Notes under the pieces: generated by a model
Database searches by the model: none
The model's input: only the letters and a program-made list of their open reading frames with translations
Told to the model about the DNA's origin: nothing
Translations under genes and position numbers: made by a program
Assembly (NCBI RefSeq): GCF_056712565.1
Contig: NZ_CM160072.1
Direction: 5' to 3' (one strand)
Length of the DNA: 64,000 nucleotides
Part shown: positions 8,390 through 53,176 of the stretch, piece by piece
How positions within the stretch are numbered: position 1 is the first letter of the stretch
How the letters are laid out: each line of letters begins with the position of its first letter

Positions 8390-8539
8390 AATTATTCTAG
8401 GATTATTTTCTTTGTTAAAAAAGACAAACGGTATTAACTGATGTATTTACTATTTACCGCTCCCTGCAGGGGGGATTATCAGAATCCGCGGTTATTCATT
8501 ATTTATATACATTCAATAAAAAAGTAACTGGATTTGCCC

Positions 8540-9445
8540 CTATATTTCCAGACACCTGTTATCACTTAACCCATTACTGGCTTGCTGCCGTAGATATTCC
8601 CGTGGCGAGCGATAACCCAGTGCACTATGCGGATGCCATTCGTTATAATGCTCGAACGCCTCTGCAAGGTTCTTTGCTGCCGTTAACCCGTCTGGTTTGG
8701 GCATGACACTGATGTAGTCACGCTTTATCGTTTTCACGAAGCTCTCTGCTATGCCGTTACTCTCCGGACTCCGCACCGCCGTGCTCTTCGGTTCAAGCCC
8801 CAACATCCGGGCAAACTGCCGTGTTTCATTAGCCCGGTAGCATGAACCATTATCCGTCAGCCACTCTACTGGAGACGCCGGAAGCTCGTTGCCGAAGCGG
8901 CGTTCCACCGCTCCCAGCATGACGTCCTGTACTGTTTCACTGTTGAAGCCGCCCGTAGTGACCGCCCAGTGCAGTGCCTCACGGTCACAGCAGTCCAGCG
9001 CGAACGTGACTCGCAGTTTTTCTCCGTTATCACAGCGGAACTCGAACCCGTCAGAGCACCATCGCTGATTACTTTCTTTCACAGCCACTCTGCCTGTATG
9101 TGCCCGTTTCGATGGCGGTACAGCAGGTTTTCGCTCAAGCAACAGCGCATTCTGGCGCATGATCCGGTAAACACGTTTGGCATTGATCGCAGGCATACCA
9201 TCAAGTTCTGCCTGTCTGCGAAGCAGCGCCCATACCCGACGATAACCATACGTGGGCAGCTCTCCGATAACATGGTGTATACGGAGAAGCACATCCGTAT
9301 CATCAGTGTGACGACTGCGGCGGCCATCCATCCAGTCATCGGTTCGTCTGAGAATGACGTGCAACTGCGCACGCGACACCCGGAGACAACGGCTGACTAA
9401 GCTTACTCCCCATCCCCGGGCAATAAGGGCGCGTGCGCTATCCAC
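8540..9445 (-). CDS. insD: IS2 transposase OrfB (InsD)
   Basis: 301-aa ORF, IS3-family DDE transposase (…[25 protein letters not shown]…). Confidence 0.9.
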
Positions 9446-9768
9446 TTTTTTGCCCGTCCATATTCAACGGCTTCTTTGAGGAGTTCATTTTCCATCGTTT
9501 TCTTGCCGAGCAGGCGCTGGAGTTCTTTAATCTGCTTCATGGCGGCAGCAAGTTCAGAGGCAGGAACAACCTGTTCTCCGGCGGCGACAGCAGTAAGACT
9601 TCCTTCCTGGTATTGCTTACGCCAGAGAAATAACTGGCTGGCTGCTACACCATGTTGCCGGGCAACGAGGGAGACCGTCATCCCTGGTTCAAAGCTCTGC
9701 TGAACAATTGCGATCTTTTCCTGTGTGGTACGCCGTCTGCGTTTCTCCGGTCCTAAGACATCAATCAT
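9403..9768 (-). CDS. insC: IS2 OrfA (InsC), HTH protein
   Basis: ORF 9403..9813; start set at [24 protein letters not shown] (121 aa); overlaps insD in the usual frameshift arrangement. Confidence 0.85.
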
Positions 9769-10103
9769 CTGCTCTCCAATGACTAGTCTAAAAACTAGTA
9801 TTAAGACTATCACTTAAATAAGTGATATTGGTTGTCTGGAGATTCAGGGGGCCAGTCTAGTAACCTCATAAAAAATCCTGTACTCACAGGGTGATGCGGG
9901 ATAACTGACGTAAGGAGTGCTGCAGGGATTTGATGGTCCCTTGTGCTGATATGAATACGGATATTTTATACAGAATACTTTTCAGTACAAGCGACTGTAT
10001 TACAGTCTGCCATATATGATTACCTGTGATCAGGAAGAATAAGTGGCTGAGGTTTCAAACTGTCTGCCGGTATATTCCTCTCTCCCTTAAAAACCATAAC
10101 AGG

Positions 10104-12015: not shown

Positions 12016-12503
12016 GTGATACCTGCCGTCAGGTGTTTGTGCACCGGGCCATAACCTGCAGTTGGGAATTGAACGCCTGACAACAGGAAATGAGCTAGAG
12101 CAGTAAACACGCGGGCTGACAATGGGTCAGAATATGAGTTAGCCCGGCGTTATTCCTGGGGTCAGTACTTCAGATCTAGCCTCCGGTACCAGACTAGCTA
12201 GCCCCTACGCAACCAAATAAATCAACCATCGTCAGAGTGCAATCGTTCATATACACTGTCGGTGATGCGCTAAAAAATGCGTTAATGTTGAGTTCCTCGA
12301 ACCCTTACCAATTAAGGGACATAGCCAGATACGCAACTGGCTGATGCAAGCAGTCTAATGTCTTTAGATCCGCTGGCCTGCGGGCATGACAATGTCAAAC
12401 AGTCAAAGATTGTGGCGTTGACGGTCAGTCTTGGGGACAAAAAAGCTCAGTATTCTCGTTGGCAACCAGATAATTTAACAGTTGATGCTGAAACGAAATA
12501 GGC

Positions 12504-12515
12504 ATCTTGGTTCTG
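12504..12515. repeat. Left copy of 12-bp IS4 target-site duplication ATCTTGGTTCTG
   Basis: Identical 12-mer directly abuts both IS4 ends. Confidence 0.85.
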
Positions 12516-13941
12516 TAATGCCAGTCAGTTAAGCAACTGACTGGCTCTTTTTCGGGGCTGTGGGGTATTTCCAGGGCCTCTCCTTTACCACTCTCGGGAA
12601 GGCCCTTTCCCTTCTTGTCGGTAATTTCACAAGTTGTCCCATACTTGCAAGATCGCGCATCAGCTCCGGTATACGTCCCGGTGAAGCGCCCTGCAATGTT
12701 ATCAGCATTCTCATCACCATTCCGCATGATTCTGAGAAACTCAGTTGATTCGGCCAGTAACCTTTCAGATGTTCCGCCATTTTAATCATCTGATATCTCA
12801 CCAGATTATAAGCCAGTAAGACACCCCACAGCTCTTGCTCCACAAGCTCCGGCTTTTTACTTCTCAGCGTCAGCCTGCTCCGTTGCATCGTCTGTTTTAT
12901 CTCCCTGTATCCCAGTTCGATTTCCCAGCGATGACTGTACAGATCCCCCATTTCTCCTCCGGGGAAGCGCATGGCGTCCGTCATCGACGTCAGCAGATGG
13001 CAGACTTTTCCTTTGCGCGTCACGGTCAGCAGGCGGGCAGTCACTTCATTTCCCAGTCCCGGCCACTTTTTTCGTGCCTGCGGGCTGGTTTTCAGCTTCA
13101 CCAGATGATCGCCTTTACCCAGTTTTCTGATCTCTTCATATTGCGCTCCCTTTCTGAGAGGTATCATCCAGTGGCGGTGTTCTCCCGCCAGGCTCCAGGC
13201 ATTTAACAGTCCCAGTGAGTAATAACCTTTATCCATTAACGTCAGAGTGTTATCGCCGGTTTGTTCTATAAGTTGCTCAGCAAGCTCATTTTCGCTGTTC
13301 TTCATCGTGCCGAAGGCTGCAGCCGTCAGCAGATGGCTGGTCAGTTCCATCTGGCAGACCATTTTGACCTGCGGGTAGAGCGCCGGGTTCCCGGCATGTG
13401 TCTGGCGGGGGAAGGCTGCATCGTTCTCTGGTGTATCCGGTGTGCGCCAGAACACACCATCGATGGCCAGCAGGGTCAGGCCGCACCAGTGCGGATGCGG
13501 CGTGGCGTTATGCCAGAGCTGCGCTGTTTTCGTGAACACGCGGCGGACAGCCTCACTTCCCAGGCGCTGGCGGGCCTGAATAACGGCACTGGGGGCAACG
13601 AAGGGGCGATTGCCCGGCAGCATGATGTCCAGGCGATTCACAATCTGGTGAAGAGGTTCTTTACGCTCAAGCGCCATGCCAACAATACACCAGACCATCA
13701 TTTCGAGGGGAAGACGGCGCTTGCGTAGCGTTACAGTACCTGATTCGGCAAGGCAACGAGAGATGAGTTCGGGGTCGAGGTAATCCCCCAGAGAAGTCAG
13801 TGGGTTACGCAGAGAATCGTAACGGGATACCAGATCAAGAGCCTGTCCAATGTGCATAAAAAAATCCGGAAACAAGTGAGCGTTTCCGGATTCTTACACA
13901 GCCACTGGATCGGTCAACTGATCCTTAACTGATCGGCATTA
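12516..13941 (-). mobile_element. IS4 insertion sequence (1426 bp) with 18-bp terminal inverted repeats
   Basis: Ends TAATGCCAGTCAGTTAAG ... CTTAACTGATCGGCATTA; length 1426 bp; encodes the IS4 transposase. Confidence 0.9.
12529..13857 (-). CDS. insG: IS4 transposase (InsG)
   Basis: ORF 12529..13875; start set at [16 protein letters not shown] (442 aa); DDE transposase. Confidence 0.9.
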
Positions 13942-13953
13942 ATCTTGGTTCTG
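13942..13953. repeat. Right copy of 12-bp IS4 target-site duplication ATCTTGGTTCTG
   Basis: Identical to 12504..12515. Confidence 0.85.
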
Positions 13954-14049
13954 GTGTTTGTAACAAACTATCAGCTACAAAAATATGCTCAATTTGTGAC
14001 ATCAGTAACAAAACGCGTTTTGTTATGTGGATTGCTTGTTTTTTGATCT

Positions 14050-14072
14050 GGTATAACAGGTATAAAGGTATA
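14050..14072 (+). promoter_or_regulatory. NanR-type operator: three GGTATA hexamer repeats upstream of yjhBC
   Basis: GGTATAACAGGTATAAAGGTATA, the repeated GGTATA motif bound by the sialic acid regulator NanR. Confidence 0.55.
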
Positions 14073-14483
14073 CAGAAAAGCAAAGAAATACTGCAAAGGA
14101 AAACAGCTATAACGTAAGCTAAAGTAATAACCTCTCAGTCTTTCCTCATTTGACGAAGGGAGTTTTATTCAACCTGAACGGACTACGAAAATGAGCACAA
14201 TGAATAAGTCAATTTTTGAAGCAGGGTTGAACTGTGCCAGTGGTGGAATATCTGGCGAACATTGTTTTTTGTTGGTGACCCAAAACTGTAGGTGGGTATC
14301 AGTTTTATCTTTCATAGAGTGAAATATGTTAAGAAGAAATGGAGGAAAAGATTGTACTGATTAGGTATTGATAACAATCAATAGTACTGGCGTATTTGAA
14401 GACAATATAATTATTTCTGGATATTGTTGAGGCTCCCTAATATTTACTTTAAGGGCTATATTAGAATAACACAGGAAACAAAT

Positions 14484-37462: not shown

Positions 37463-37669
37463 ATGGCTACCCCTGTTTCGCTGATGGATGACCAGATGGT
37501 CGACATGGCGTTTATCACTCAACTTACCGGCTTAACCGATAAGTGGTTTTACAAACTCATCAAAGATGGGGGCTTTCCTGCCCCCATCAAAATGGGGCGC
37601 AGCTCCCGCTGGCTGAAAAGTGAAGTGGAAGCCTGGCTGCAGGCGCGTATTGCACAGTCCCGTCCGTAA
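37463..37669 (+). CDS. alpA: AlpA-family phage-type transcriptional regulator
   Basis: 68 aa, MATPVSLMDDQMVDMAFITQLTGLTDKWFYKLIKDGGFPAPIKMGRSSRWLKSEVEAWLQARI; start by frame within ORF 36959..37669. Confidence 0.75.
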   Translation: MATPVSLMDDQMVDMAFITQLTGLTDKWFYKLIKDGGFPAPIKMGRSSRWLKSEVEAWLQARIAQSRP

Positions 37670-37748
37670 TTTCTGACCGTTATCCGTTCACCCGCAGCAG
37701 ACGTAATCTCCGGCCTGCCGGCGGCATTCTGCTGCCTGTTATATCCCC

Positions 37749-38366
37749 GTGAGGAATATGAAAATGAAACAACAGTATCAGACCCGCTACGAATGGCTCC
37801 ACGAAAGCTACCAGAAATGGCTGACCGGCTTCACCCGGCACGCCGTATTCTGGGGCGTGTGTCATCCGAATATCTACTACTTCCATAATCTGACGCCCGG
37901 TTGGGTGTCATTCAATGGTGAAAAACCGGAGATTGCCATCGTACCCCAGAGCCTGCACCGGCTGATTTATGGCCCTGACAAACGGGCCACACCGCCCCTG
38001 GATGATGATCTGATAGTGAATTTATGCACCAGTGAACATCTGCTGGTTCATCATCCGATGCTGGAAGGCATTCTCCTGTCTGAATGTGAACGTCTGAGGC
38101 AGCGTTCTCTGGCAAATAAACTGATCAGCCTCTTCCGTCAGTTTGGTGGCACGGAGTTGCGCCTCAAACTGGTCTGGCTTTGCTGGCTTGATTTAATGAC
38201 CGGAAACTGCCTTGACGACTGGACGGAGAATCTGAAACGGAAATCAGAAAAAGAGCTGGAGGAATGGATCATCAACCGTCAGAAGCAGAGCGCAGCACTG
38301 ACGGATCTGATGGATCAGTACGTGCTCCTGTCATACCGCACAACGGTTGACGATAAGCGCACCTGA
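37749..38366 (+). CDS. Hypothetical protein, 205 aa, no recognised domain
   Basis: ORF immediately downstream of alpA; Cys/His-containing, no TM segments. Confidence 0.5.
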   Translation: MRNMKMKQQYQTRYEWLHESYQKWLTGFTRHAVFWGVCHPNIYYFHNLTPGWVSFNGEKPEIAIVPQSLHRLIYGPDKRATPPLDDDLIVNLCTSEHLLVHHPMLEGILLSECERLRQRSLANKLISLFRQFGGTELRLKLVWLCWLDLMTGNCLDDWTENLKRKSEKELEEWIINRQKQSAALTDLMDQYVLLSYRTTVDDKRT

Positions 38367-38588
38367 TGCCAGTTGTTTCAGGGAAGCTGGTATCCGGGCA
38401 GGGTGCCAGGGCTGACTGAACGGCCTGTCTGCCTGCCGTTTCGCTCTCCGTGCGTTCTGTCACACGCTGCACCTGAACGCCGGACTGCGGGCACGCAGAC
38501 AGGAAAGTCGCAGGCTGGAACTTCTGACCGGCGGGTATCAGTTATATGCCTGTTGATTCATCACCACCACGCAGCTCCTGAGCTTTAG

Positions 38589-38628
38589 TTCATCACCGAT
38601 ATTCATACATCTGAATATCGGTGATGAA
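38589..38628. repeat. Perfect 17-bp inverted repeat (TTCATCACCGATATTCA-TACATC-TGAATATCGGTGATGAA) between two convergent genes
   Basis: 17/17 complementary arms with 6-nt loop; no flanking T tract on either strand. Confidence 0.6.
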
Positions 38629-38687
38629 ATCCCCATAATAATCAATCATCTAAGTCTGAAGCATAATGGAGAAAAACTGCTCACCGG

Positions 38688-40172
38688 TTACTTCGCTCTC
38701 AGCTTATTGTAGTGATAACCCGAGGTAAAAATACCAGAGACATCAGACAACTTTAAACTGGCTATCTGGGGAAGCAGAACATACATGGTTTTTCCTTCCG
38801 GCACGACAGAAAGCCTGAACTGAGATTCAAGAATGTTCAGCAATGCGTTCAGTTTTTTCCTGTTTCTGAACCGGCCCGGGCCACACTGGAGAATATAATT
38901 TTTCCTGACACGGGGCGGGCATTCTCCGCGGCACTCCTCAATGAGCCAGTCGAACAGCTCCTCGGCGTCCTTCTGCTGCAGTTCAGATTCATCAGGTAAC
39001 GCAAATAATTTTTTATATTCATCTGTGTACCACGAACTTATTACGACAGCAGACGTCATGATATCGGCAGAGATTTTCCCTTCACCATAGCTGAAATACT
39101 GAAATAACGCTGCAATTCTTGCAATGTTTTCTGTTTTTTTTGAAACATGTCCCCGAAACGGGCTTAAGGGTCCGGAAGGGGATAAATCCTGCTCCAGAAC
39201 ATTATAGTGCTCAATAAATATTTTTTGCGCTTCAGGCGAAAAATGCAGACAATACCGTTCATCCTCACTGGATTTTTCAATACTGCCTCTGGCCAGTTCC
39301 ATTAATCGTTCATGAAATGCCGTTAATGATCCTCCCGGAATCACAGCTCCGTTAATAAAGCGTTTCCCCTGCGTGGTTGCAGGTTTACTGATAAGACAAC
39401 GGGCAAGAAAACCACTGTCCCTGGCAACAGAACCTTTTCGCTCCATATATCGGTCAAAAAGACCGGGTTGCACCATGAGGGATAACGTCATTCTGGCATT
39501 TTCAATCATCTGTTCGGGTTCATTCTTTCTGTCCACAGACAATACAGAGCCATCCCACATTTTGTTAATAAAAGGCAACTCAGACAGGGTATATCCATCA
39601 AATATAATACCGGCTTCATCTGACATAATACCAACTGAACGCCATTTACCACAAAGCTGATTCTTAATTGCCGCAGTCGTGGCATCATTAAAAATGAATT
39701 TATACCTCACAGGTTCTTCCGCACTGTTTTTCTGAAGTACTTCCAGTTGTCTGAGGGTTTCTGACTCATCCGCGCCTTTGCGGAGTTCTTTATTCAGTTT
39801 TGACAACAATGCTTTTTTCTGAGCCTTTAAAAGCTCTTCCTTGTTTTTCCAGACAGCCAGTTCACTTTTGTATCTGGAATATAACTGCATCTCCTGCTGG
39901 TACAGGGGCTTCATTAATAATTTGTCCACTGCGGTTTTTCGTTCTCCGGACTCGGCAAGCGTCAGGAAAAAAAGAGAGACCGGCCCCCGCAGTGTATTCA
40001 GTCTGCAGACATCAATCAGATTCTGGCAGACAAGTGAAACAGCGCCCAGGGCAGACGCTGCCACAAGCCCAAGGGGAGCCTGCGTAATTTGCTGAGCTTC
40101 AATAACGGCATCACGAATGAGTGGAGGCAGCGAACTCAGGGGAAACTCATCACAAGGCTGACCGAATGACAT
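38688..40172 (-). CDS. DUF3987-like (YfjI-like) protein of phage-satellite/integrative-element type
   Basis: ORF 38688..40241; start probably MSFGQPCDEFPLSSLPPLIRDAV…; N-terminal pattern typical of DUF3987 (recollection). Confidence 0.5.
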   Translation of the reverse strand: MSFGQPCDEFPLSSLPPLIRDAVIEAQQITQAPLGLVAASALGAVSLVCQNLIDVCRLNTLRGPVSLFFLTLAESGERKTAVDKLLMKPLYQQEMQLYSRYKSELAVWKNKEELLKAQKKALLSKLNKELRKGADESETLRQLEVLQKNSAEEPVRYKFIFNDATTAAIKNQLCGKWRSVGIMSDEAGIIFDGYTLSELPFINKMWDGSVLSVDRKNEPEQMIENARMTLSLMVQPGLFDRYMERKGSVARDSGFLARCLISKPATTQGKRFINGAVIPGGSLTAFHERLMELARGSIEKSSEDERYCLHFSPEAQKIFIEHYNVLEQDLSPSGPLSPFRGHVSKKTENIARIAALFQYFSYGEGKISADIMTSAVVISSWYTDEYKKLFALPDESELQQKDAEELFDWLIEECRGECPPRVRKNYILQCGPGRFRNRKKLNALLNILESQFRLSVVPEGKTMYVLLPQIASLKLSDVSGIFTSGYHYNKLRAK

Positions 40173-41241
40173 AGTAACCTCACTATACACAGATATAAAA
40201 GCACTGCAATTCTGGCTATTAATAGCAAAAATAGCAGTCAAATCAATATGAGGTAAAATTTTTTGTTGATTTAATGGTTAAATAATAACCACAGTGTATT
40301 TTGCTGCTGAAGAAAGACAAAATGAATCTGTGTGTCCCCTCCTTCCCTTCGGAGCACATCCACTATTCAAATTTTACACAACCACGTACGAACAAAAAGC
40401 ATCATCCCGGGTATTGCAGATACCGGTTTCCTGCCGGGAAGAATCATAAACAGAACACCGGGAATAACGCCTTCAGGAATCACCCCCCCTCCTGAAGAAG
40501 AATAAAATAAAGAAGACTACAGTTCCTGCACTGAATGCTGAGTACAATATTTTATGGACAGGATGACATTTTTATAAATAACAAAAACCATTTAATACTG
40601 ATACATCAATAAAATACTTCTTCCCTGCTGACACAGATAAAATGCACCATTTTTTCTTCAAATACTTCTGTATAATCGCCAGCCAATGATGAGAATGGAT
40701 TAAAATAACACTTCTTCGACAAACACAAAAACAGCCTTCATTTTACATCATCATCCAGTTTCAGTTAACCCCGGACGAGCGACAGTGTTTCAGTACAGGA
40801 ATTAAAAGCCAGCTTTTGCTCAGTAAAACACACTCAACTAATAATATCTCAGCAGATATTATCCTGACCAGGACACCTCACATTACTGAATTCTCTTCCG
40901 ACAGTATCACTGCACAAATAAAAAGAACGGGATAAATATTCAGACCGGAAGAATGGTGTCACAAAAGCATTTAATCATTACGCATGACCAGGAAGGGAAA
41001 CACTTAACCACATGGTATCAACAGATATCATTACGTGTGCACTCTTATAAAAAACACACAGAAGAAGTAAGATAATTATAAACGTAAATTTAATATCTCC
41101 CACTGACATCTCCCCCACAATACACTAAAAAATACTCACAGCAGTAAACACAGATACACCTGATAATCATACAGCCGATAAATATTTTCCCCTTTACGGA
41201 GAAATCAGCCTGCTGTTTAACAATAACGGCGTATTTTCATG

Positions 41242-41282
41242 GAAGGAGATCACCCAGTAACGGATAAGTCCTGATCTCCTTC
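41242..41282. repeat. 11-bp perfect inverted repeat with GATC in each arm, about 120 bp upstream of the GTPase gene
   Basis: GAAGGAGATCA-(19 nt)-TGATCTCCTTC. Confidence 0.4.
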
Positions 41283-41401
41283 ATGTTAATACGCAACAAT
41301 CCCATCGATTCAAAACAATTTCAGACAGATATTATCTCCGTGAATCCCCCGCCACCTTTCCGGTGCGCGGGGTTTTGTCTTTTTTCACCGGGAATACATG
41401 T

Positions 41402-42274
41402 ATGAATCCGTCTGATGCCATTGAGGCAATTGAAAAACCGCTCTCCTCCCTGCCTTACTCACTTTCCCGTCACATCCTGGAACATCTGCGCAAACTCACC
41501 AGTCACGAACCCGTGATTGGCATTATGGGTAAAAGCGGGGCCGGTAAATCCTCACTCTGTAATGCACTGTTTCAGGGGGAGGTCACCCCGGTCAGTGATG
41601 TTCACGCCGGCACCCGGGAAGTACGGCGCTTCCGTCTGAGTGGCCACGGTCACAGCATGGTTATCACTGACCTGCCCGGGGTGGGCGAGAGCCGGGACAG
41701 GGATGCAGAGTATGAAGCCCTGTACCGTGACATTCTGCCCGAACTGGACCTGGTGCTGTGGCTGATTAAAGCCGATGACCGCGCCCTGTCTGTGGATGAG
41801 TATTTCTGGCGACACATCCTGCACCGGGGACATCAGCAGGTGCTGTTTGTGGTGACGCAGGCCGACAAAACGGAGCCCTGCCATGAATGGGATATGGCCG
41901 GCATTCAGCCTTCTCCCGCACAGGCACAGAACATTCGGGAGAAAACGGAGGCGGTATTCCGTCTGTTCCGGCCCGTACATCCGGTTGTTGCCGTATCGGC
42001 CCGCACCGGCTGGGAACTGGATACGCTGGTCAGTGCGCTAATGACAGCACTTCCCGACCATGCCGCCAGTCCCCTGATGACCCGCCTGCAGGACGAGCTG
42101 CGCACGGAATCTGTCCGCGCTCAGGCCCGTGAACAGTTTACCGGTGCGGTGGACCGGATATTTGACACGGCGGAGAGCGTCTGTGTTGCCTCTGTTGCCC
42201 GTACGGTTCTGCGTGCCGTCCGTGACACGGTGGTCTCTGTTGCCCGCGCTGTATGGAACTGGATTTTCTTCTGA
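41402..42274 (+). CDS. YeeP/YkfA/YfjP-type GTPase (CP4 prophage family)
   Basis: ORF 41363..42274, start MNPSDAIEAIE; G1 motif GKSGAGKSS, G3 DLPG; precedes the Ag43 gene as in CP4-44. Confidence 0.8.
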   Translation: MNPSDAIEAIEKPLSSLPYSLSRHILEHLRKLTSHEPVIGIMGKSGAGKSSLCNALFQGEVTPVSDVHAGTREVRRFRLSGHGHSMVITDLPGVGESRDRDAEYEALYRDILPELDLVLWLIKADDRALSVDEYFWRHILHRGHQQVLFVVTQADKTEPCHEWDMAGIQPSPAQAQNIREKTEAVFRLFRPVHPVVAVSARTGWELDTLVSALMTALPDHAASPLMTRLQDELRTESVRAQAREQFTGAVDRIFDTAESVCVASVARTVLRAVRDTVVSVARAVWNWIFF

Positions 42275-42392
42275 ACAGTCCGCCAGGGAAATGCCTGATA
42301 ACATTACGTTAACCAACTGAAAACATGACACAAACCCCTCATACTCCTCCTGTTTCTCTTGCGTGACCGCCTTGTCGTTAATAGAATAAAAC

Positions 42393-42428
42393 GATCGATA
42401 AAACAGGTATCGATCGTTACTATCGATC
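42393..42428 (+). promoter_or_regulatory. Antigen 43 phase-variation switch: three GATC (Dam) sites, expected to overlap the OxyR site
   Basis: GATC at 42393, 42412 and 42425 (spacing 19 and 13 bp) about 220 bp upstream of the flu start codon. Confidence 0.65.
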
Positions 42429-42645
42429 GTTTATAGTGGTTAATGGTCTGCGAAAAGGCAGCTGAATCTCTTCATCATGCAGAACGGAATTGCACACAAC
42501 GGACTGATACTTCTCTGGCGGATGAGAGAGGGGAAGCATTTATGTCCGGGAAAAACCACTTTATCTGAGCATGCTGTTTTGTACCTGCCGGTATCCACAT
42601 TTGTGGGTACCGGCTTTTTTATTCACCCTCTGTAAGGAAAAGCTG

Positions 42646-45600
42646 ATGAAACGACATCTGAACACCAGCTACAGGCTGGTATGGAATCACATTACGGGCA
42701 CCCTGGTGGTGGCCTCCGAACTGGCCCGCTCACGGGGAAAACGCGCTGGTGTGGCGGTTGCGCTGTCTCTTGCTGCTGTCACATCAGTCCCGGCACTGGC
42801 TGCTGACAAGGTTGTACAGGCGGGAGAAACCGTGAACGACGGAACACTGACAAATCATGACAACCAGATTGTCCTCGGTACGGCCAACGGAATGACCATC
42901 AGTACCGGTCTGGAGTATGGGCCGGATAACGAGGCCAATACCGGCGGACAATGGATACAAAATGGCGGTATCGCCAACAACACTACTGTCACCGGTGGTG
43001 GTCTTCAGAGAGTGAATGCCGGAGGAAGCGTTTCAGACACGGTTATCAGTGCCGGAGGCGGACAGAGCCTTCAGGGGCAGGCAGTGAACACCACTCTGAA
43101 CGGCGGTGAGCAGTGGGTACATGAAGGCGGGATTGCAACGGGTACCGTCATTAATGAGAAGGGCTGGCAGGCCATCAAATCCGGCGCAGTGGCAACCGAC
43201 ACGGTTGTGAATACCGGCGCGGAAGGGGGACCGGATGCGGAAAATGGTGATACCGGGCAGACCGTCTACGGAGATGCCGTACGCACCACCATCAATAAAA
43301 ATGGTCGTCAGATTGTGGCTGCTGAAGGAACGGCAAATACCACTGTGGTTTATGCCGGCGGCGACCAGACTGTACATGGTCACGCACTGGATACCACGCT
43401 GAATGGGGGGTACCAGTATGTGCACAACGGCGGTACGGCGTCTGGCACTGTTGTAAACAGTGACGGCTGGCAGATTGTCAAAAACGGGGGTGTGGCCGGG
43501 AATACCACCGTTAATCAGAAGGGCAGACTGCAGGTGGACGCCGGTGGTACAGCCACGAATGTCACCCTGAAGCAGGGCGGCGCACTGGTTACCAGTACGG
43601 CTGCAACCGTTACCGGCATAAACCGCCTGGGAGCATTCTCTGTTGTGGAGGGTAAAGCTGATAATGTCGTACTGGAAAATGGCGGACGCCTGGATGTGCT
43701 GACCGGACACACAGCCACTAATACCCGCGTGGATGATGGCGGAACGCTGGATGTCCGCAACGGTGGCACCGCCACCACCGTATCCATGGGAAATGGCGGT
43801 GTACTGCTGGCCGATTCCGGTGCCGCTGTCAGTGGTACCCGGAGCGACGGAAAGGCATTCAGTATCGGAGGCGGTCAGGCGGATGCCCTGATGCTGGAAA
43901 AAGGCAGTTCATTCACGCTGAACGCCGGTGATACGGCCACGGATACCACGGTAAATGGCGGACTGTTCACCGCCAGGGGCGGCACACTGGCGGGCACCAC
44001 CACGCTGAATAACGGCGCCATACTTACCCTTTCCGGGAAGACGGTGAACAACGATACCCTGACCATCCGTGAAGGCGATGCACTCCTGCAGGGAGGCTCT
44101 CTCACCGGTAACGGCAGCGTGGAAAAATCAGGAAGTGGCACACTCACTGTCAGCAACACCACACTCACCCAGAAAGCCGTCAACCTGAATGAAGGCACGC
44201 TGACGCTGAACGACAGTACCGTCACCACGGATGTCATTGCTCAGCGCGGTACAGCCCTGAAGCTGACCGGCAGCACTGTGCTGAACGGTGCCATTGACCC
44301 CACGAATGTCACTCTCGCCTCTGGTGCCACCTGGAATATTCCCGATAACGCCACGGTGCAGTCGGTGGTGGATGACCTCAGCCATGCTGGACAGATTCAT
44401 TTCACCTCCACCCGCACAGGGAAGTTCGTACCGGCAACCCTGAAAGTGAAAAACCTGAACGGACAGAATGGCACCATCAGCCTGCGTGTACGCCCGGATA
44501 TGGCACAGAACAATGCTGACAGACTGGTCATTGACGGTGGCAGGGCAACTGGAAAAACCATCCTGAACCTGGTGAACGCCGGCAACAGTGCGTCGGGGCT
44601 GGCGACCAGCGGTAAGGGTATTCAGGTGGTGGAAGCCATTAACGGTGCCACCACGGAGGAAGGGGCCTTTATCCAGGGGAATAAGCTGCAGGCCGGTGCC
44701 TTTAACTACTCCCTCAACCGGGACAGTGATGAGAGCTGGTATCTGCGCAGTGAAAATGCTTATCGTGCTGAAGTCCCCCTGTATACATCCATGCTGACAC
44801 AGGCAATGGACTATGACCGGATTCTGGCAGGCTCCCGCAGCCATCAGACCGGTGTAAACGGTGAAAATAACAGCGTCCGTCTCAGCATTCAGGGCGGTCA
44901 TCTCGGTCACGATAACAACGGCGGTATTGCCCGTGGAGCCACGCCGGAAAGCAGCGGCAGTTATGGCTTCGTCCGTCTGGAGGGTGACCTGCTGAGAACA
45001 GAGGTTGCCGGTATGTCTCTGACGACAGGGGTGTATGGTGCCGCAGGCCATTCTTCCGTTGATGTTAAGGATGATGACGGTTCCCGCGCCGGCACGGTCC
45101 GGGATGATGCCGGCAGTCTGGGCGGATACCTGAATCTGGTACACACGTCCTCCGGCCTGTGGGCTGACATTGTGGCACAGGGAACCCGCCACAGCATGAA
45201 AGCATCATCGGACAATAACGACTTCCGCGCCCGGGGCTGGGGCTGGCTGGGCTCACTGGAAACCGGTCTGCCCTTCAGTATCACTGACAATCTGATGCTG
45301 GAGCCACAACTGCAGTACACCTGGCAGGGACTCTCCCTGGATGACGGCCAGGATAACGCCGGTTATGTGAAGTTCGGGCATGGCAGTGCACAACATGTGC
45401 GTGCCGGCTTCCGTCTGGGCAGCCACAACGATATGAACTTTGGTAAAGGCACCTCATCCCGTGACACCCTGCGCGACAGTGCCAAACACAGTGTGCGTGA
45501 ATTGCCGGTGAACTGGTGGGTACAGCCTTCTGTTATCCGCACTTTCAGCTCCCGGGGTGACATGAGCATGGGTACAGCCGCCGCCGGCAGTAACATGACG

Positions 45601-45765
45601 TTCTCACCGTCCCGGAATGGCACGTCACTGGACCTGCAGGCCGGACTGGAAGCCCGTGTCCGGGAAAATATCACCCTGGGCGTTCAGGCCGGTTATGCCC
45701 ACAGCGTCAGCGGCAGCAGCGCTGAAGGTTATAACGGTCAGGCCACGCTGAATGTGACTTTTTGA
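42646..45765 (+). CDS. flu: Antigen 43 self-associating autotransporter adhesin
   Basis: ORF 42571..45765; start [52 protein letters not shown] (extended autotransporter signal peptide); repetitive Gly/Thr/Asn beta-helix passenger; C-terminal beta-barrel ending …GQATLNVTF. Confidence 0.9.
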
Positions 45766-45788
45766 TAATCAGGTCACTCTCCTTCAGG

Positions 45789-45815
45789 CCCCGGTCATCA
45801 TGACCGGGGCTTTTT
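45789..45815 (+). terminator. Rho-independent terminator of flu
   Basis: Hairpin CCCCGGTCA-TCA-TGACCGGGG followed by CTTTTT. Confidence 0.7.
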
Positions 45816-45835
45816 ACTTTCAGGGAGCAACAGAT

Positions 45836-45994
45836 ATGCCGGGTTGTACATCTCGTTTATTGCCCGAAGGCCCTTTCTCACGCGAACAGGCTGTTGCCGT
45901 CAAAACAGCTTACCGCAATGTGTTTACTGAAGATGACCAGGGAACATATTCCCGGCTGGTTATCCGTAATGCTGAAGGTCAGTTGCGCTGGTGA
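45836..45994 (+). CDS. Small hypothetical protein (52 aa) of CP4-type modules
   Basis: In-frame ATG downstream of the flu terminator within ORF 45800..45994. Confidence 0.35.
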
Positions 45995-46148
45995 TGCCGG
46001 AACACAGCTTAATACTCAGCTCGCCAGTTAAGGGCTTCTCAGACAATAAACGTCATTCATTTCATCTGTCAGGCCGCGTCTTCTCCGGGAGACGTGGCTT
46101 TTTCATTTATTACACCAGTAAATCGTAACCACCGATAAGGAGCAAATT

Positions 46149-46967
46149 ATGCGACTAGCCAGTCGTTTTGGTTATGCGAACCAGATACGCCGTGACCGTC
46201 CGCTGACACACGAAGAACTGATGCACTATGTTCCCAGTATTTTCGGTGAAGACCGGCATACTTCCCGCAGTAAACGATATGCGTACATTCCCACCATCAC
46301 CGTACTGGAAAGCCTGCAGCGGGAAGGCTTTCAGCCATTCTTCGCCTGCCAGACCCGTGTGCGCGACCCGGGCCGCCGGGGATACACAAAACACATGCTG
46401 CGTCTGCGGCGGGCCGGAGAGATAAACGGAGAACATGTCCCTGAAATCATTCTGCTCAACTCCCATGACGGTACCTCCAGCTACCAGATGCTGCCGGGTT
46501 ACTTCAGGTTCGTCTGTCAGAACGGATGCGTCTGTGGTCAGTCTCTGGGGGAAGTGCGTGTTCCGCACCGGGGAAATGTGGTGGACAGATTCATTGAAGG
46601 GGCTTACGAGGTGGTGGGCGTGTTTGACCGGATAGAGGAGAAGCATGATGCCATGCAGTCGCTGGTCCTGTCGCCACCGGCACGCCAGGCGCTGGCACAG
46701 GCGGCACTGACTTACCGTTATGGTGACGAACATCAGCCAGTCACCACCGCTGACATTCTGACACCACGACGCAGGGAGGGTTACGGTCAGGACCTGTGGA
46801 GCGCATATCAGACCATCCAGGAGAATATGCTGAAAGGCGGAATTTCCGGCCGCAGTGCAAAAGGAAAACGTATCCACACCCGTGCCATTCACAACATCGA
46901 CACCGATATTAAGCTCAACCGCGCATTGTGGGTAATGGCAGAAACGCTGCTGGAGAGCCTGCGCTGA
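46149..46967 (+). CDS. DUF932-like protein (YfjQ/YafZ family)
   Basis: 272 aa; size and position after the GTPase/Ag43 genes match YfjQ/YafZ-type proteins (recollection). Confidence 0.6.
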   Translation: MRLASRFGYANQIRRDRPLTHEELMHYVPSIFGEDRHTSRSKRYAYIPTITVLESLQREGFQPFFACQTRVRDPGRRGYTKHMLRLRRAGEINGEHVPEIILLNSHDGTSSYQMLPGYFRFVCQNGCVCGQSLGEVRVPHRGNVVDRFIEGAYEVVGVFDRIEEKHDAMQSLVLSPPARQALAQAALTYRYGDEHQPVTTADILTPRRREGYGQDLWSAYQTIQENMLKGGISGRSAKGKRIHTRAIHNIDTDIKLNRALWVMAETLLESLR

Positions 46968-47308
46968 TGCAGCATGTCCCTGAAAGCGTGATTCAGGCAC
47001 CAGAATCACCCGACGCCCCGGAGGCGCTGCCGGGGTGTCGTTCCATTTCTGATGATGACCTGTGCGCCTGGTGTACCCGTCTGCTTTACCGTCCCGGAGA
47101 AATCAGTCTGTGCAGACTGAGTATACAGGCAATGGCATCTGGCCATCCGTCTGTGACCGGAACGGTTACGCGTACGGCTGTCCGGAATTTCAGCCGAATA
47201 TCATTCATCCCTGATATTACCGGGTCATCACGGTCAGTGATGAACGTGATGTTGCCAGCTCCCGACCTTTACTCCCTCTCATTTATTCACATTACAAGGA
47301 TTTCATAC

Positions 47309-47782
47309 ATGAAAACATTGTCTCAGAACACCACCTCTTCGGCCTGTGCACCGGAGACTGACCTGCAAAAACTGGTAGCCACTCCCGTCCCTGATGAACG
47401 GCGCATCAGCTTCTGGCCGCAGCACTTTGGCCTCATTCCACAGTGGGTGACCCTGGAGCCCCGTATCTTCGGCTGGATGGACCGTCTGTGTGAAGACTAC
47501 TGCGGTGGTATCTGGAATCTGTACACCCTGAACAACGGCGGGGCATTTATGGCACCCGAACCGGATGACGATGATGACGAAACATGGGTACTGTTCAATG
47601 CCATGAACGGTAACCGCGCTGAAATGAGCCCGGAAGCCGCCGGCATTGCTGCCTGTCTGATGACGTACAGTCATCATGCCTGTCGTACGGAGTGTTATGC
47701 CATGACGGTCCATTATTACCGGCTGCGGGATTACGCCCTGCAGCATCCGGAATGCAGCGCCATTATGCGCATCATCGACTGA
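47309..47782 (+). CDS. Antirestriction protein (KlcA/ArdB-like; YfjX/YafX family)
   Basis: 157 aa from MKTLSQNTTSS…; upstream part of the same ORF (46967..47308) may be a separate small gene or an N-terminal extension. Confidence 0.65.
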   Translation: MKTLSQNTTSSACAPETDLQKLVATPVPDERRISFWPQHFGLIPQWVTLEPRIFGWMDRLCEDYCGGIWNLYTLNNGGAFMAPEPDDDDDETWVLFNAMNGNRAEMSPEAAGIAACLMTYSHHACRTECYAMTVHYYRLRDYALQHPECSAIMRIID

Positions 47783-47797
47783 ATGGAGAGAAGTACA

Positions 47798-48274
47798 ATG
47801 CAACAGCTTTCCTTTCTGCCCGGAGAGATGACGCCCGGCGAGCGCAGCCTCATTCAACGGGCCCTGAAAACCCTGGACCGCCATCTTCATGAACCCGGCG
47901 TGGCCTTCACCTCCACCCGTGCGGCACGAGAATGGCTGATTCTGAACATGGCGGGACTGGAGCGTGAAGAGTTCCGGGTGCTGTATCTGAACAACCAGAA
48001 TCAGCTGATTGCCGGTGAAACCCTCTTCACCGGCACCATCAACCGCACGGAAGTCCATCCCCGGGAAGTGATTAAACGCGCCCTGTATCACAATGCCGCT
48101 GCTGTGGTGCTGGCACACAATCACCCGTCCGGTGAAGTCACACCCAGCAAGGCAGACCGCCTTATCACGGAACGTCTGGTACAGGCACTGGGCCTGGTGG
48201 ATATCCGGGTGCCGGACCATCTGATAGTCGGTGGCAGCCAGGTTTTCTCCTTTGCCGAATATGGTCTGCTTTAA
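47798..48274 (+). CDS. RadC-like JAB-domain protein (YeeS/YkfG/YfjY family)
   Basis: JAMM motif HNHPSGEVTPSKAD; ORF 47783..48274. Confidence 0.8.
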   Translation: MQQLSFLPGEMTPGERSLIQRALKTLDRHLHEPGVAFTSTRAAREWLILNMAGLEREEFRVLYLNNQNQLIAGETLFTGTINRTEVHPREVIKRALYHNAAAVVLAHNHPSGEVTPSKADRLITERLVQALGLVDIRVPDHLIVGGSQVFSFAEYGLL

Positions 48275-48336
48275 CCCGTCACAACCACATCACACCTGTT
48301 TTCACTTTTATCTTCTGTCTTCAGAGGTATCCCACT

Positions 48337-48558
48337 ATGAAAATCATCACCCGTGGCGAAGCCATGCGTATTCACCGTCAGCATCCGGCATCCCGTCTTT
48401 TTCCGTTCTGTACCGGCAAATACCGCTGGCACGGCAGTGCTGAAGCGTATACCGGTCGTGAAGTGCAGGATATTCCCGGTGTGCTGGCCGTGTTTGCAGA
48501 ACGCCGTAAGGACAGTTTTGGTCCGTATGTCCGGCTGATGAGCGTCACCCTGAACTGA
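48337..48558 (+). CDS. YeeT-like small protein (DUF987)
   Basis: 73 aa; position between the RadC-like gene and the antitoxin as in CP4-44. Confidence 0.65.
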   Translation: MKIITRGEAMRIHRQHPASRLFPFCTGKYRWHGSAEAYTGREVQDIPGVLAVFAERRKDSFGPYVRLMSVTLN

Positions 48559-48720
48559 TGTTCCGTCACCCGGAAAACGAGTACGACTGGCAGAGCTCAG
48601 ACGCCGCTGTGGATGAGGTCCTGCTCATCAACGAATACACCTTTACCGAAGCCGGTCTGCGCGCCGGCTGACCCGTCATCGTTAAACTATCATTCACCGA
48701 TTTTCTGTGAGGATTTTATC

Positions 48721-49089
48721 GTGTCAGACACACTTTCCGGGACAACGCATCCCGATGACAATGACGACCATCCCTGGTGGGGACTACCCTGCACAGTGAC
48801 GCCCTGTTTCGGCGCCCGTCTGGTGCAGGAGGGTAACCGGTTGCATTACCTTGCCGACCGTGCCGGTATCAGAGGCCGGTTCAGAGATGCGGATGCGTAC
48901 CCTCTGGACCAGGCCTTTCCGCTGCTGATGAAACAACTGAAATTAATGCTCACCAGTGGTGAACTGAATCCCCGCCATCAGCATACCGTGACACTGTATG
49001 CGAAGGGGCTGACCTGTGAAGCCGACACCCTCGGCTCCTGTGGTTACGTTTATCTGGCTGTTTATCCGACACCTGAAACGAAAAAGTAA
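48721..49089 (+). CDS. cbeA: CbeA/YeeU-family antitoxin, GTG start
   Basis: VSDTLSGTTHPDDNDDHPWWGLPCTVTPCFGARLVQEGNRLHYLADRAGIRG…TPETKK, 122 aa, matches the CbeA family along its length. Confidence 0.75.
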   Translation: MSDTLSGTTHPDDNDDHPWWGLPCTVTPCFGARLVQEGNRLHYLADRAGIRGRFRDADAYPLDQAFPLLMKQLKLMLTSGELNPRHQHTVTLYAKGLTCEADTLGSCGYVYLAVYPTPETKK

Positions 49090-49178
49090 ACCACCAGAAT
49101 AACCTTCTGCTCCGGCCTGGTGTTTTCACCACGCCACTGTCCCATTTTTTATCTCTGCATATCAGGAAAATCTTCAGT

Positions 49179-49409
49179 ATGAAAACATTACCCGACACGC
49201 ATGTACGGGAGGTATCGTGCTGCCCGTCTCCAGTCACCATCTGGCAGACACTGCTCACCCGGTTACTGGACCAGCATTCCCTGATTTCCTCATCGATATC
49301 GAATAAGCACTCGTCGCAGAATTCTTTATCGAGTGAGAGCCTCTGTTCAAGGACGCTTCTTTTTTTTGTTGCAACGTGCACATCCCTTCATCTTTCCGCG
49401 CCTTTGTGA
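49179..49409 (+). pseudogene. cbtA: Truncated CbtA/YeeV-family toxin gene (only about the first 33 codons are toxin-like)
   Basis: MKTLPDTHVREVSCCPSPVTIWQTLLTRLLDQH matches the CbtA/YkfI/YpjF N-terminus; from about 49278 the frame reads unrelated low-complexity sequence. Confidence 0.7.
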
Positions 49410-49546
49410 CCTCGTGATTTGGGGTACATGGAAAATGGGCGTAGCAAGCCTCAGCTAGATAACTAACCGTAATAAAAGGGCTTTTCTGCGAGCAATGTAA
49501 GAGAAGGATAACTAGGCAGGTTGCAAGAAAGATAATCGTTTTGATA

Positions 49547-49581
49547 GATCAGTTTATCGATATTGATCGTTAGTGCCGATC
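49547..49581 (+). promoter_or_regulatory. Second GATC triplet resembling the Ag43 Dam/OxyR switch, about 450 bp upstream of mtnK
   Basis: GATC at 49547, 49565, 49578 (spacing 18 and 13 bp versus 19 and 13 in the flu switch); shared GATCGTTA-N5-GATCG core. Confidence 0.35.
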
Positions 49582-49930
49582 GATAAGAAGTGCGGAAACG
49601 TTAGACTCACCTCTGTTGCTCCATCATGATGATGGGGCTGTTGGCCCTCGAATCTATCTGTCTATTAGCATCGGCATGACAAACACCATTTGTTTCCACA
49701 ACAAAAGACAATAGAAAAGTACATATGTACAAAAAGTGTGATTTATTCTGTCACTTCAGTACTTCCTTTCGCCTAAGTTTGCCCGTAATAATTCCCCGTG
49801 CAGTACTATTGTTGCGACATAACAACATGAATTACATGGTAATAATAGATGTTTTCCTCTGCTGATTCCTGTAAGGATCATGACTCCATACGACATCATT
49901 TTTAATTTTATACAGTTCAAAAAATCTACA

Positions 49931-49980
49931 TGTGTCACAAATAATTTTACATTTGATAATGTATAGTTGTCACATGACAA
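49931..49980 (+). promoter_or_regulatory. Operator-like palindromes TGTGTCACA and TTGTCACATGACAA in the mtnK promoter region
   Basis: Two palindromic sites sharing a TGTCACA core, 37-86 bp upstream of the mtnK ATG, near a GATAAT -10-like hexamer. Confidence 0.3.
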
Positions 49981-50016
49981 GTTGATTATCATTCTGTGTA
50001 GACAAGGAGAACTGTT

Positions 50017-51276
50017 ATGACGGATTCAATTCCATCAGGTTACAAGCCGCTGACATGTGACACGCTGCCGGGTTATCTCTCGTCCAGACTGACCCCTTCA
50101 TGCGAACCGGGAGGGTTACCTGAAGAGTGGAAAGTTTCAGAAGTGGGGGACGGAAACCTGAACATGGTGTTTATCGTTGAGGGGACACATAAAACCATCA
50201 TTGTAAAACAAGCTCTGCCCTGGCTTCGTGCCGGGGGCGAAGGATGGCCTTTATCTCTGAGCCGTGCGGGCTTTGAGTACAACGTCTTATGTCAGGAAGC
50301 CAAGTACGCGGGTCACACACTGATTCCGCAGGTCTATTTTTACGACCCGGAAATGGCGCTGTTTGCCATGGAGTATCTGACTCCTCACGTGATTCTGCGT
50401 AAGGAACTGATTAACGGTAAAAAATTCCCTAAACTAGCTGAAGATATCGGCAGATTTTTAGCACAGACTCTCTTCAATACGTCTGACATTGGCATGTCAG
50501 CAGAACAGAAAAAAGCGCTTACTGCCGAGTTCGCGTTGAATCATGAGCTGTGCAAAATTACGGAAGATCTGATCTTCACAGAGCCCTATTACAACGCTGA
50601 ACGGAATAACTGGACTTCTCCTGAGCTGGACGATGCCGTCCATAAGGCCTGGGCTGATGTAGAGATGATCCAGGTTGCCATGCGTTATAAGTACAAATTT
50701 ATGACAGAAGCGCAGGCATTGTTACATGGCGACCTTCATTCAGGCTCAATCATGGTGACCGACACGGATACCAAAGTGATTGATCCGGAGTTCGGTTTCA
50801 TGGGGCCAATGGCGTTTGATATCGGCAACTATATTGGCAACCTCCTGCTGGCGTACTTCTCACGCCCTGGGTGGGATGCGAATGAGCAACGTCGCGCTGA
50901 CTATCAGGAATGGCTGCTTCAGCAGATTGTCCAAACCTGGTCCGTTTTCACCCGGGAGTTCCGCCAGCTCTGGGACAACAAAACACAGGGCGACGCGTGG
51001 TCGACAGAAATGTATCAACAGAACAGGGCCGCTCTTGAGGACGCACAGGATCAGTTTTTTGCCACGCTGCTTGAAGATTCCCTGGTGAATGCCGGCATGG
51101 AAATGAATCGCCGGATCATTGGTTTTGCTGGCGTTGCCGAGCTGAAACAGATTGAAAATACAGAGCTTCGCGCAGGATGTGAACGACGTGCATTGACCAT
51201 GGCGCGCGATCTTATCGTCAATGCCCGCCAGTTTAAAAATATGGATTCCGTCATCCAGTCTGCGAAGGTTAAGTAA
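50017..51276 (+). CDS. mtnK: 5-methylthioribose kinase-like kinase
   Basis: 419 aa; phosphotransferase fold with HGDLHSGSIMV catalytic motif; first gene of a four-gene co-directional cluster. Confidence 0.8.
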   Translation: MTDSIPSGYKPLTCDTLPGYLSSRLTPSCEPGGLPEEWKVSEVGDGNLNMVFIVEGTHKTIIVKQALPWLRAGGEGWPLSLSRAGFEYNVLCQEAKYAGHTLIPQVYFYDPEMALFAMEYLTPHVILRKELINGKKFPKLAEDIGRFLAQTLFNTSDIGMSAEQKKALTAEFALNHELCKITEDLIFTEPYYNAERNNWTSPELDDAVHKAWADVEMIQVAMRYKYKFMTEAQALLHGDLHSGSIMVTDTDTKVIDPEFGFMGPMAFDIGNYIGNLLLAYFSRPGWDANEQRRADYQEWLLQQIVQTWSVFTREFRQLWDNKTQGDAWSTEMYQQNRAALEDAQDQFFATLLEDSLVNAGMEMNRRIIGFAGVAELKQIENTELRAGCERRALTMARDLIVNARQFKNMDSVIQSAKVK

Positions 51277-51285
51277 GAGGTCATT

Positions 51286-52401
51286 ATGAATATTAAAGGT
51301 AAACACTATCGTACGGTCTGGGTTTCCGGGGATGGAAAAGCGGTAGAAATCATCGATCAGACTAAGTTGCCTTTTAAGTTCGAGGTGGTGGCGCTTACCT
51401 CTGCGGAAATGGCCGCTACGGCTATTCAGGATATGTGGGTTCGTGGCGCTCCGCTTATTGGTGTCGTTGCAGCCTATGGCATCGCGCTGGGAATGAATCA
51501 CGATGCCAGTGACATGGGTCTGCAGCGTTACTATGACCTTCTTATCAAAACCCGACCAACGGCAATTAATCTCAAATGGGCCCTCGACAGGATGATAGAC
51601 ACACTGAAGGATCTCTGTGTATCAGAGCGCAAGGATGTGGCCTGGGCGCTGGCGGCAGAAATTGCCGAGGAAGATGTCGCGTTGTGTGAACAAATTGGAT
51701 TACATGGTGCAGAAGTCATCCGCGAAATAGCCCAGAAAAAACCGGCCGGGAGTGTGGTCAATATCCTGACACATTGTAACGCAGGCTGGCTGGCGACTGT
51801 AGACTGGGGAACCGCGCTTTCTCCCATCTACAAAGCGCATGAAAACGGAATCCCTGTTCACGTCTGGGTGGATGAAACGCGGCCACGTAATCAGGGCGGA
51901 CTCACGGCATTTGAACTGGGCTCACACGGTATTCCTCACACCCTGATCGCCGACAACGCGGGTGGCCACCTGATGCAACACGGTGACGTTGATCTCTGCA
52001 TTGTTGGGACCGATCGAACCACGGCCAGAGGGGATGTCTGTAATAAAATTGGTACCTATCTTAAGGCGCTGGCGGCCCATGATAACCATGTTCCCTTCTA
52101 CGTCGCGTTACCTTCTCCCACTATTGACTGGACTATCGAGGACGGAAAAAGCATTCCGATTGAGCAACGTGACGGAAAAGAGCAGTCCCATGTCTATGGG
52201 ATAAACCCTCAGGGAGAATTGAGCTGGGTCAATACCGCCCCTGAAGGAACCCGTTGTGGGAACTACGCTTTCGACGTCACGCCTGCCCGATACATTACCG
52301 GCTTCATTACTGAGCGGGGAGTCTGTGCTGCCAGTAAGTCAGCGCTGGCGGATATGTTTGCTGACCTGAAGAGTAAAGCACTCCAGGGGGAACAGCATTA
52401 A
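51286..52401 (+). CDS. mtnA: 5-methylthioribose-1-phosphate isomerase (eIF-2B alpha/beta/delta-like family)
   Basis: 371 aa; …[15 protein letters not shown]… and …[10 protein letters not shown]… typical of this isomerase family. Confidence 0.8.
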
Positions 52402-52431
52402 AACAGCGGCCATTGCTATTAAGGATCAGGA

Positions 52432-53073
52432 ATGGAACGGATTAAGTTAGCAGAAAAAATCATTTCCACTTGTCGGGAAATGAATGCGTCAGGTCTTAAT
52501 CAAGGAACATCAGGTAATGTGAGTGCCAGGTATACCGGTGGCATGTTGATTACGCCGAGTGGGATCGCTTATTCAAAGATGACGCCGGACATGATTGTCT
52601 TTGTAGACGATAAGGGAAAACCTGAAGCGGGTAAAATACCATCAAGTGAATGGTTAATTCATCTGGCGTGTTATAAAGCCAGACCAGAATTGAATGCTGT
52701 CATACATACGCATGCGGTGAATTCCACGGCGGTGGCAATACATAATCATTCAATTCCGGCCATTCATTATATGGTGGCGGTATCGGGGACGGATCATATT
52801 CCCTGTATTCCCTATTATACCTTTGGCAGTCCTGAACTGGCCGACGGTGTATCTAAAGGAATCAGAGAAAGTAAGTCCTTGCTGATGCAGCACCACGGTA
52901 TGCTGGCCATGGACGTCACGCTGGAAAAGACGTTGTGGCTGGCGGGTGAAACCGAGACGCTGGCTGATTTATACATCAAATGTGGCGGATTACATCACGA
53001 TGTTCCCGTGCTGTCTGAAGCCGAAATGACCATCGTCCTTGAAAAATTCAAAACGTATGGTTTGAAAGCGTAA
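52432..53073 (+). CDS. Class II aldolase/adducin-family protein (probable 5-methylthioribulose-1-phosphate / 5-deoxyribulose-1-phosphate aldolase)
   Basis: 213 aa; zinc-ligand motifs VIHTHAVNS and HHGMLA; no dehydratase-pathway genes downstream. Confidence 0.75.
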   Translation: MERIKLAEKIISTCREMNASGLNQGTSGNVSARYTGGMLITPSGIAYSKMTPDMIVFVDDKGKPEAGKIPSSEWLIHLACYKARPELNAVIHTHAVNSTAVAIHNHSIPAIHYMVAVSGTDHIPCIPYYTFGSPELADGVSKGIRESKSLLMQHHGMLAMDVTLEKTLWLAGETETLADLYIKCGGLHHDVPVLSEAEMTIVLEKFKTYGLKA

Positions 53074-53176
53074 TTACAGCTTTATTTTAATTAATAACAT
53101 ATGACAGCCATTCGCAGAATGGCTGCTATTCCCTCTGTCCACAACGATTGATTATAACTACCACAAGGAGTTATTT

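Follow-up and report, generated by a model that had tools for sequence, protein, structure and literature searches.

IS4 and IS2 as probable simple insertions and IS1F as a probable rearrangement junction in a leuX island of Escherichia coli

The locus and the genomes compared

The DNA analysed here, called the window, is a 64,000-nucleotide stretch of NCBI RefSeq assembly GCF_056712565.1 (contig NZ_CM160072.1). Judged by the annotation of near-identical genomes, it is a KpLE2-type genomic island of E. coli at the leuX tRNA gene; KpLE2 is located at leuX and contains fec and sgc (PMC3032704). The left part of the window carries, in order, idnR-idnK, ahr, a tRNA-Leu gene (6832-6916) and a P4-type integrase gene (int), which are followed by IS2, an eptA-like pseudogene, yjgZ, IS4 (insG), nanX and nanY. 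After nanY come an IS911 copy, a BCCT transporter gene, IS600 and then fecEDCBA-fecR-fecI on the minus strand. Beyond fecI lie an IS1 of the IS1F type, fragments of IS3, IS5 and IS66, a set of CP4-type island genes (Ag43, an antirestriction gene and yeeU/cbtA), mtnK and mtnA. Last in this order are yjhU-yjhF-yjhGHI and sgc. The window is 99.84-99.99% identical to the chicken isolate strain 104, and its host is not K-12.

All genome counts refer to the 5426 complete E. coli genomes in RefSeq, a set in which laboratory and clinical lineages are over-represented. The in-silico excisions proposed in a preliminary description of the window were performed for IS4 and IS2 by removing the element together with one copy of its flanking repeat and searching the joined sequence with BLAST. 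The IS4-less join combines positions 12004-12515 and 13954-14453 (1012 bp) and the IS2-less join positions 8024-8528 and 9865-10364, each with a single repeat copy retained. Occupied IS4 sites were probed with a 140-bp query spanning the junction of flank and IS. For IS1, an initial excision query of 500 + 500 bp was uninformative because the two pieces get joined across the 768-bp IS1, and the site was queried with a 141-bp junction sequence.

Structure of IS4 and IS2

IS4 occupies positions 12516..13941 on the minus strand. It is 1426 bp long, has terminal inverted repeats (TAATGCCAGTCAGTTAAG and TAATGCCGATCAGTTAAG) that match at 16 of 18 positions, and contains insG (12529-13875, minus strand), a single intact ORF of 448 codons annotated as an IS4 family transposase. 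As had been described, the element is bordered by a perfect 12-bp direct repeat, ATCTTGGTTCTG, with its left copy at 12504..12515 and its right copy at 13942..13953. This 12-mer has exactly two matches in the 64-kb window, both on the plus strand and both abutting IS4; 0.01 matches are expected by chance, and two or more were seen in none of 100 shuffles. The bases just beyond the two repeat copies differ (C versus A on the left, T versus G on the right), and the duplication is therefore exactly 12 bp. IS4 is moved by a DDE transposase, which in the IS4 subgroup is expected as one long ORF with a YREK motif, and its staggered target cuts are 11-13 bp apart. The IS4 subgroup is characterized by 10-13-bp duplications and -AATR- ends, with IS4 itself measuring 1426 bp (PMC2266710, Table 1). 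The window copy has this length, its ends read TAATGCC... and thus show the -AATR- start of the subgroup, and its 12-bp duplication falls within the subgroup range.

IS2 is present at positions 8529..9859 on the minus strand as a 1331-bp variant, the length typical of the element. Its termini are TGGATTTGCC... (IRR) and TAGACTGGCC... (IRL), and the imperfect terminal repeats of IS2 have been described as 41/42 bp long (PMC3299598). The element has the two overlapping reading frames of IS2, orfA and orfB; the A6G frameshift motif AAAAAAG begins at position 409 of the element, and PGAP annotates it as an intact IS3-family transposase with a predicted programmed -1 frameshift. The protein is identical to a transposase of plasmid pIP72 (WP_102384962.1). 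The 5-bp repeat GTAAC noted in the preliminary description flanks the element at 8524..8528 on the left and 9860..9864 on the right, and a 5-bp match at these fixed abutting positions has a chance probability of ~0.0014 given the local composition. IS2 moves by a copy-out-paste-in route via a figure-of-eight and a minicircle, and its catalytic centres act 5 bp apart (PMC3299598), a spacing that accounts for a 5-bp duplication. Duplications of this length surround IS2 elsewhere as well (TCAGA, ATACC and CCTTG). With their intact ORFs, both IS4 and IS2 may still be active.

The repeats would lose their meaning as target duplications if the element boundaries had been mis-set and the repeated bases were in fact IS termini, which the preliminary description had named as the outcome that would overturn its reading. 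Some Shigella plasmid matches to IS4 do overrun the proposed ends (query 49-1494 versus an expected 51-1476), one IS2 plasmid match (pIP72) extends to query 39-1387, and the base before the right GTAAC is also an A, which makes a 6-bp repeat (AGTAAC) visible. At the base level, however, the overruns in IS4 and IS2 reflect a chance resemblance of targets that differ in sequence. Four independent IS4 copies in unrelated plasmid or chromosomal contexts are all 1426 bp long and end at identical bases, with four different duplications around them (CTCCGGGATGTG, CAGCTAGGCTG, CTCCGCTCGCTG and CGGCGTTATGCCG, of 11, 12, 12 and 13 bp). The boundaries curated for IS4 in MG1655 (4502090-4503515) coincide with those of the window copy, and ATCTTGGTTCTG lies on either side. 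Three independent IS2 copies, each of 1331 bp, share the termini ...CAGTCTA and TGGATTTGCC... and then run into unrelated DNA, with TCAGA, ATACC or no duplication beside them, and plasmid homology to the window's IS2 is bounded exactly at 8529 and 9859. In all three copies the last base of the element is invariably the A seen at 9859; this A therefore belongs to the IS2 end, and the IS2 duplication is 5 bp. Because the termini are constant and the duplications differ among copies of both elements, the repeats are target DNA. The empty sites described below, which keep one copy of each repeat, agree, and the probability that the repeats are IS ends is considered negligible.

Empty and occupied sites

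The IS4-less join was found end to end, as one 1012/1012 piece, in 169 complete E. coli genomes, and the IS2-less join as a single uninterrupted piece, at 99.9% identity, in 1149. Base-level inspection of the empty IS4 site in IAI39 shows the 12-mer once in the 92-bp junction, together with one SNP at a distance of 38 bp. For IS2, E. coli C has the exact 85-bp join, and inspection base by base shows that K-12 MG1655 is likewise empty, with one copy of GTAAC in both. Each of the two elements is thus accompanied by a duplication typical of its family and by an empty site with one repeat copy, in line with the earlier proposal that both arrived by simple transposition and that no rearrangement followed; nothing in the present analysis contradicts a simple-insertion reading of either. 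IAI39, which has neither IS4 nor IS2, also lacks ~630 bp within the eptA-like pseudogene (window 10262-10892), and its island haplotype is 0.4-0.7% diverged from the window.

IS4 is present at exactly the window site in 966 genomes, MG1655 among them, versus the 169 in which the site is empty. The chromosomal IS4 of K-12 (insG, b4278) corresponds to the window copy in site, length, termini and ATCTTGGTTCTG duplication as well as in orientation relative to yjgZ and nanX, and nothing of substance differs between them. The element itself shows one SNP in 1426 bp relative to the curated K-12 sequence, and within 11 kb around it the flanks of the window and K-12 are 99.90-99.95% identical. The best IS4-empty haplotype is only 99.5% identical (IAI39 has 6 differences per 1012 bp), and with no empty haplotype above this value, the empty and occupied forms are distinct island haplotypes.

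Side by side, the IS4 targets share a pattern. In all five that were examined (window 12490-13967 and the four independent copies), the duplication is preceded by an A-run 3-5 bp upstream, and in three of the five a T-run follows ~3 bp downstream, which suggests a symmetric target preference. The older IS4 literature gives a target consensus of AAA-N20-TTT; among the five sites, the window matches it exactly and one other matches within a range of spacings, so that it does not hold for all five.

A target preference of this kind raises the possibility that the window site is a hotspot at which IS4 inserted repeatedly and independently. IS4 is known for strong target preference, and recurrent insertion at one site is conceivable; the A-runs at five of five targets and T-runs at three of five point the same way, and empty and occupied sites both occur among strains of mixed origin. 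Against repeated insertion, all 966 occupied sites carry IS4 in one orientation and the inverted arrangement was found at the window site in none of the 5426 genomes. The near-identity of the K-12 and window copies (1/1426 bases) over flanks that agree at 99.9% for 11 kb, together with the separation of all empty sites on other island haplotypes, also speaks against it, and a hotspot is regarded as very unlikely. The observations fit a single old IS4 insertion that would have been carried on one island haplotype, a single origin that is judged from orientation, near-identity and flank haplotype rather than from a phylogeny.

The IS2 site is occupied in only 101 genomes, and the flanks of empty sites differ from the window at 1 position per 1005 bp. 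This restricted distribution, together with the 99.9% identity of the empty flanks, argues that the IS2 insertion is probably younger than that of IS4 and restricted to a minority lineage. The age of an insertion cannot be read from an intact duplication. The proposal that duplications would separate recent insertions from recombination breakpoints consequently holds in part: IS1 does turn out to mark a probable junction, as described below, but the word 'recent' fails for IS4, which is shared by 966 genomes including K-12, and only IS2 is lineage-restricted.

The nearest annotated neighbour of the window's IS2 is IS2K of K-12 (insC6/insD6), which also has 1331 bp, two overlapping ORFs with the A6G frameshift and the same termini and shares the int-yjgX intergenic region and the 5-bp length of the duplication. 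IS2K is nevertheless an independent insertion, located 80 bp to the right of the window's IS2 in the opposite orientation and flanked by CCTTG versus GTAAC; its target is present and unoccupied in the window at 9939..9943, and the two elements are 97.7% identical (30/1331 mismatches). The idea that IS2K occupies the same site as the window's IS2 was discarded on account of the 80-bp offset and the opposite orientation. With two independent insertions within 80 bp, the int-yjgX spacer may be a preferred landing zone for IS2.

To the right of IS4, three GGTATA repeats (GGTATAACAGGTATAAAGGTATA) are found at 14050-14072, ~110 bp from the end of the element, and the nanX ATG is at 14484. These repeats resemble the operator of NanR in the sialic-acid regulon. 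IS4 is thus placed just upstream of a putative nanXY control region in the 966 genomes.

The IS1F junctions

The IS1 copy at 32037..32804 on the plus strand has the length (768 bp) and the inverted repeats of ~23 bp expected of IS1, and is of the IS1F type. The 23-nt inverted repeats are 87% complementary, and identity to IS1A copies is 90.4-90.6%. In keeping with the insA/insB' arrangement of IS1, the element has an InsA-like reading frame, but stop codons interrupt the transposase frames, and the annotation lists a pseudogene with an internal stop. IS1F has been reported to carry 73 mismatches to the consensus, to adjoin fecIR and to show essentially no transposition, and IS1 normally generates 8-9-bp duplications (PMC12428005). 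The lack of a duplication, which the preliminary description had already pointed out for this copy, was confirmed: the flanking 9-mers GGGGATTTC and TCCTCCCGA agree at 0/9 positions, and no repeat of 6-12 bp exists within 3 bp of either end. Neither flank occurs beside another IS end in the window, and the only recurrence of GGGGATTTC there, as a reverse complement, is at 38626, a position that is not next to an IS.

The IS1-less join was detected in 0/5426 genomes with the 141-bp junction query, and all matches stop at the IS1 boundary. Neither an 8-9-bp duplication nor an empty site thus accompanies this element. The fec-side flank ends at one and the same base in about 2700 genomes and continues without IS1 in seven. 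One of the sequences in which it continues is the IncF plasmid p4422IncF (NZ_CP076283.1), where the fecI-side end of a fec operon runs past GGGGATTTC without IS1 (TGCTGTCAGACTGC...); with seven genomes only, this IS1-free end was not callable as the ancestral state.

On the right, the first ~71 bp next to IS1 (32805-32875) match, at 95.8% identity, an internal part of a gene for an omptin (OmpT-like) protease on ColV-type plasmids; they are thus a gene remnant, and IS1 abuts a truncated omptin gene. The arrangement of the window, with fec, IS1 and the omptin remnant, is found in about 1580 genomes when two junction queries are combined. The IS1F of K-12 by fecIR is 99.6% identical to the window copy and shares with it the left junction to the fec upstream region, the degenerate transposase and the lack of a duplication. 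The two differ at the right junction, where the window copy abuts the omptin remnant and 21.3 kb of island DNA and the K-12 copy abuts the yjhU side. Beyond IS4, this extra 21.3 kb by IS1 and the different position of IS2 distinguish the window host from K-12.

The segment that is absent from K-12-type genomes measures 21,319 bp (32805..54123) and starts exactly at the right terminus of IS1. In the K-12-like strain 9A, which has the order fecI / IS1F / yjhU, the alignment jumps from window position 32804 to 54124, and this deletion junction is present in 357/5426 genomes. A deletion that starts at an IS1 terminus is the classical footprint of IS1-promoted adjacent deletion, and by comparison of the sequences the K-12 state is an IS1-adjacent deletion of 21,319 bp relative to the window. 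The segment contains the omptin remnant, IS fragments, an ariR-like gene, a gene for a phytase-like esterase and Ag43, and also holds the antirestriction, yeeU/cbtA, mtnK and mtnA genes.

A third configuration is found in strain STB20-1 (NZ_CP050173.1), where IS1F and the right-hand block are as in the window but the partner on the left is another one, a pair of genes for an arginine decarboxylase and an antiporter. This block is located in a tRNA-Phe island with several IS1A copies, and its occurrence there indicates that it is common to different tRNA islands. The three IS1F copies carry no recombination signal in their SNPs, each having only three private SNPs. None of the three configurations includes a duplication, and the ancestral simple-insertion state was not recovered from them.

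The missing duplication could also be explained if IS1 had inserted at a double-strand break or in the course of a large rearrangement, so that no duplication was ever made. IS movements accompanied by large deletions or duplications have been directly observed without target duplications (bioRxiv 10.1101/2024.06.02.596822), and the genomes compared yielded no duplication-bearing ancestral state. One IS1F copy, 99.6% identical between occurrences, is nonetheless joined to at least three combinations of partners, and K-12 has cleanly lost, from the IS1 terminus onward, DNA that the window retains. The varied partners and the K-12 deletion argue for events on a resident IS1 rather than a single break-repair insertion, which is accordingly considered improbable. 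Because no IS1-less join exists in the 5426 genomes and the partners vary between strains, IS1F is best read as a rearrangement (mosaic) junction. The element is inactive alone, but its two ends, and its homology with further IS1 copies, may still serve as substrates.

Proposed history of the elements

We are confident in the overall account that IS4 and IS2 are simple insertions, that IS4 is the older of the two, and that IS1F is a junction produced by an IS1-end-promoted event in the leuX island. The order of events and the IS1 mechanism behind the window's own junctions are the parts that we infer. IS4 and IS2 would each have entered intergenic DNA by one simple transposition, in which the filling-in of staggered target cuts, 12 bp apart (IS4) and 5 bp apart (IS2), produced the direct repeats on either side, and neither junction would have been rearranged after insertion. 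The IS4 insertion would have occurred once, long ago, and have been inherited with its island haplotype as the classical chromosomal IS4 of K-12. The insertion of IS2 would have come later and remained confined to a minority lineage.

The decayed IS1F, for its part, marks the outer limit of the fec module, which is fixed. One or both of the IS1F junctions would stem from an IS1-end-promoted event instead of a simple insertion, which would leave no duplication; the event may have been an adjacent deletion via intramolecular transposition or homologous recombination between IS1 copies. A broader and more tentative idea, which we consider somewhat more apt to be wrong than right, is that the decayed IS1F is a conserved portable edge of the fec module that has repeatedly been used as a point of homology or deletion, with the IS2 landing zone between int and yjgX as a related possibility. 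If this is true, IS1F would shuffle fec and neighbouring island blocks among tRNA islands (leuX and pheV) and plasmids.

For mosaic islands, these comparisons provide a simple rule: an IS marks a clean insertion if its duplication is typical of the family and an empty site exists, and an IS with neither marks a rearrangement junction. Under this rule IS1F, and not IS4 or IS2, is the structurally unstable point of the leuX island, and it explains the 21 kb by which K-12 differs from strains like that of the window. All three elements are already known, with IS4 being the reference K-12 insertion and IS1F at fec being annotated before. The insertion of IS2 is a strain polymorphism of the ordinary sort, and none of these results is new in kind. 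The importance of the result thus lies in correct structural annotation, with little beyond such bookkeeping.

One further repeat pair was noted between nanY and the fec operon. Two direct, partial IS911-like copies of ~791 bp each (18003-18793 and 22572-23362) bracket a DUF2254 fragment, the BCCT transporter gene and IS600. The initial 300 nt of the two copies are 100% identical and the remainder is 92-94% identical, and the pair is a possible composite or recombination-prone unit.
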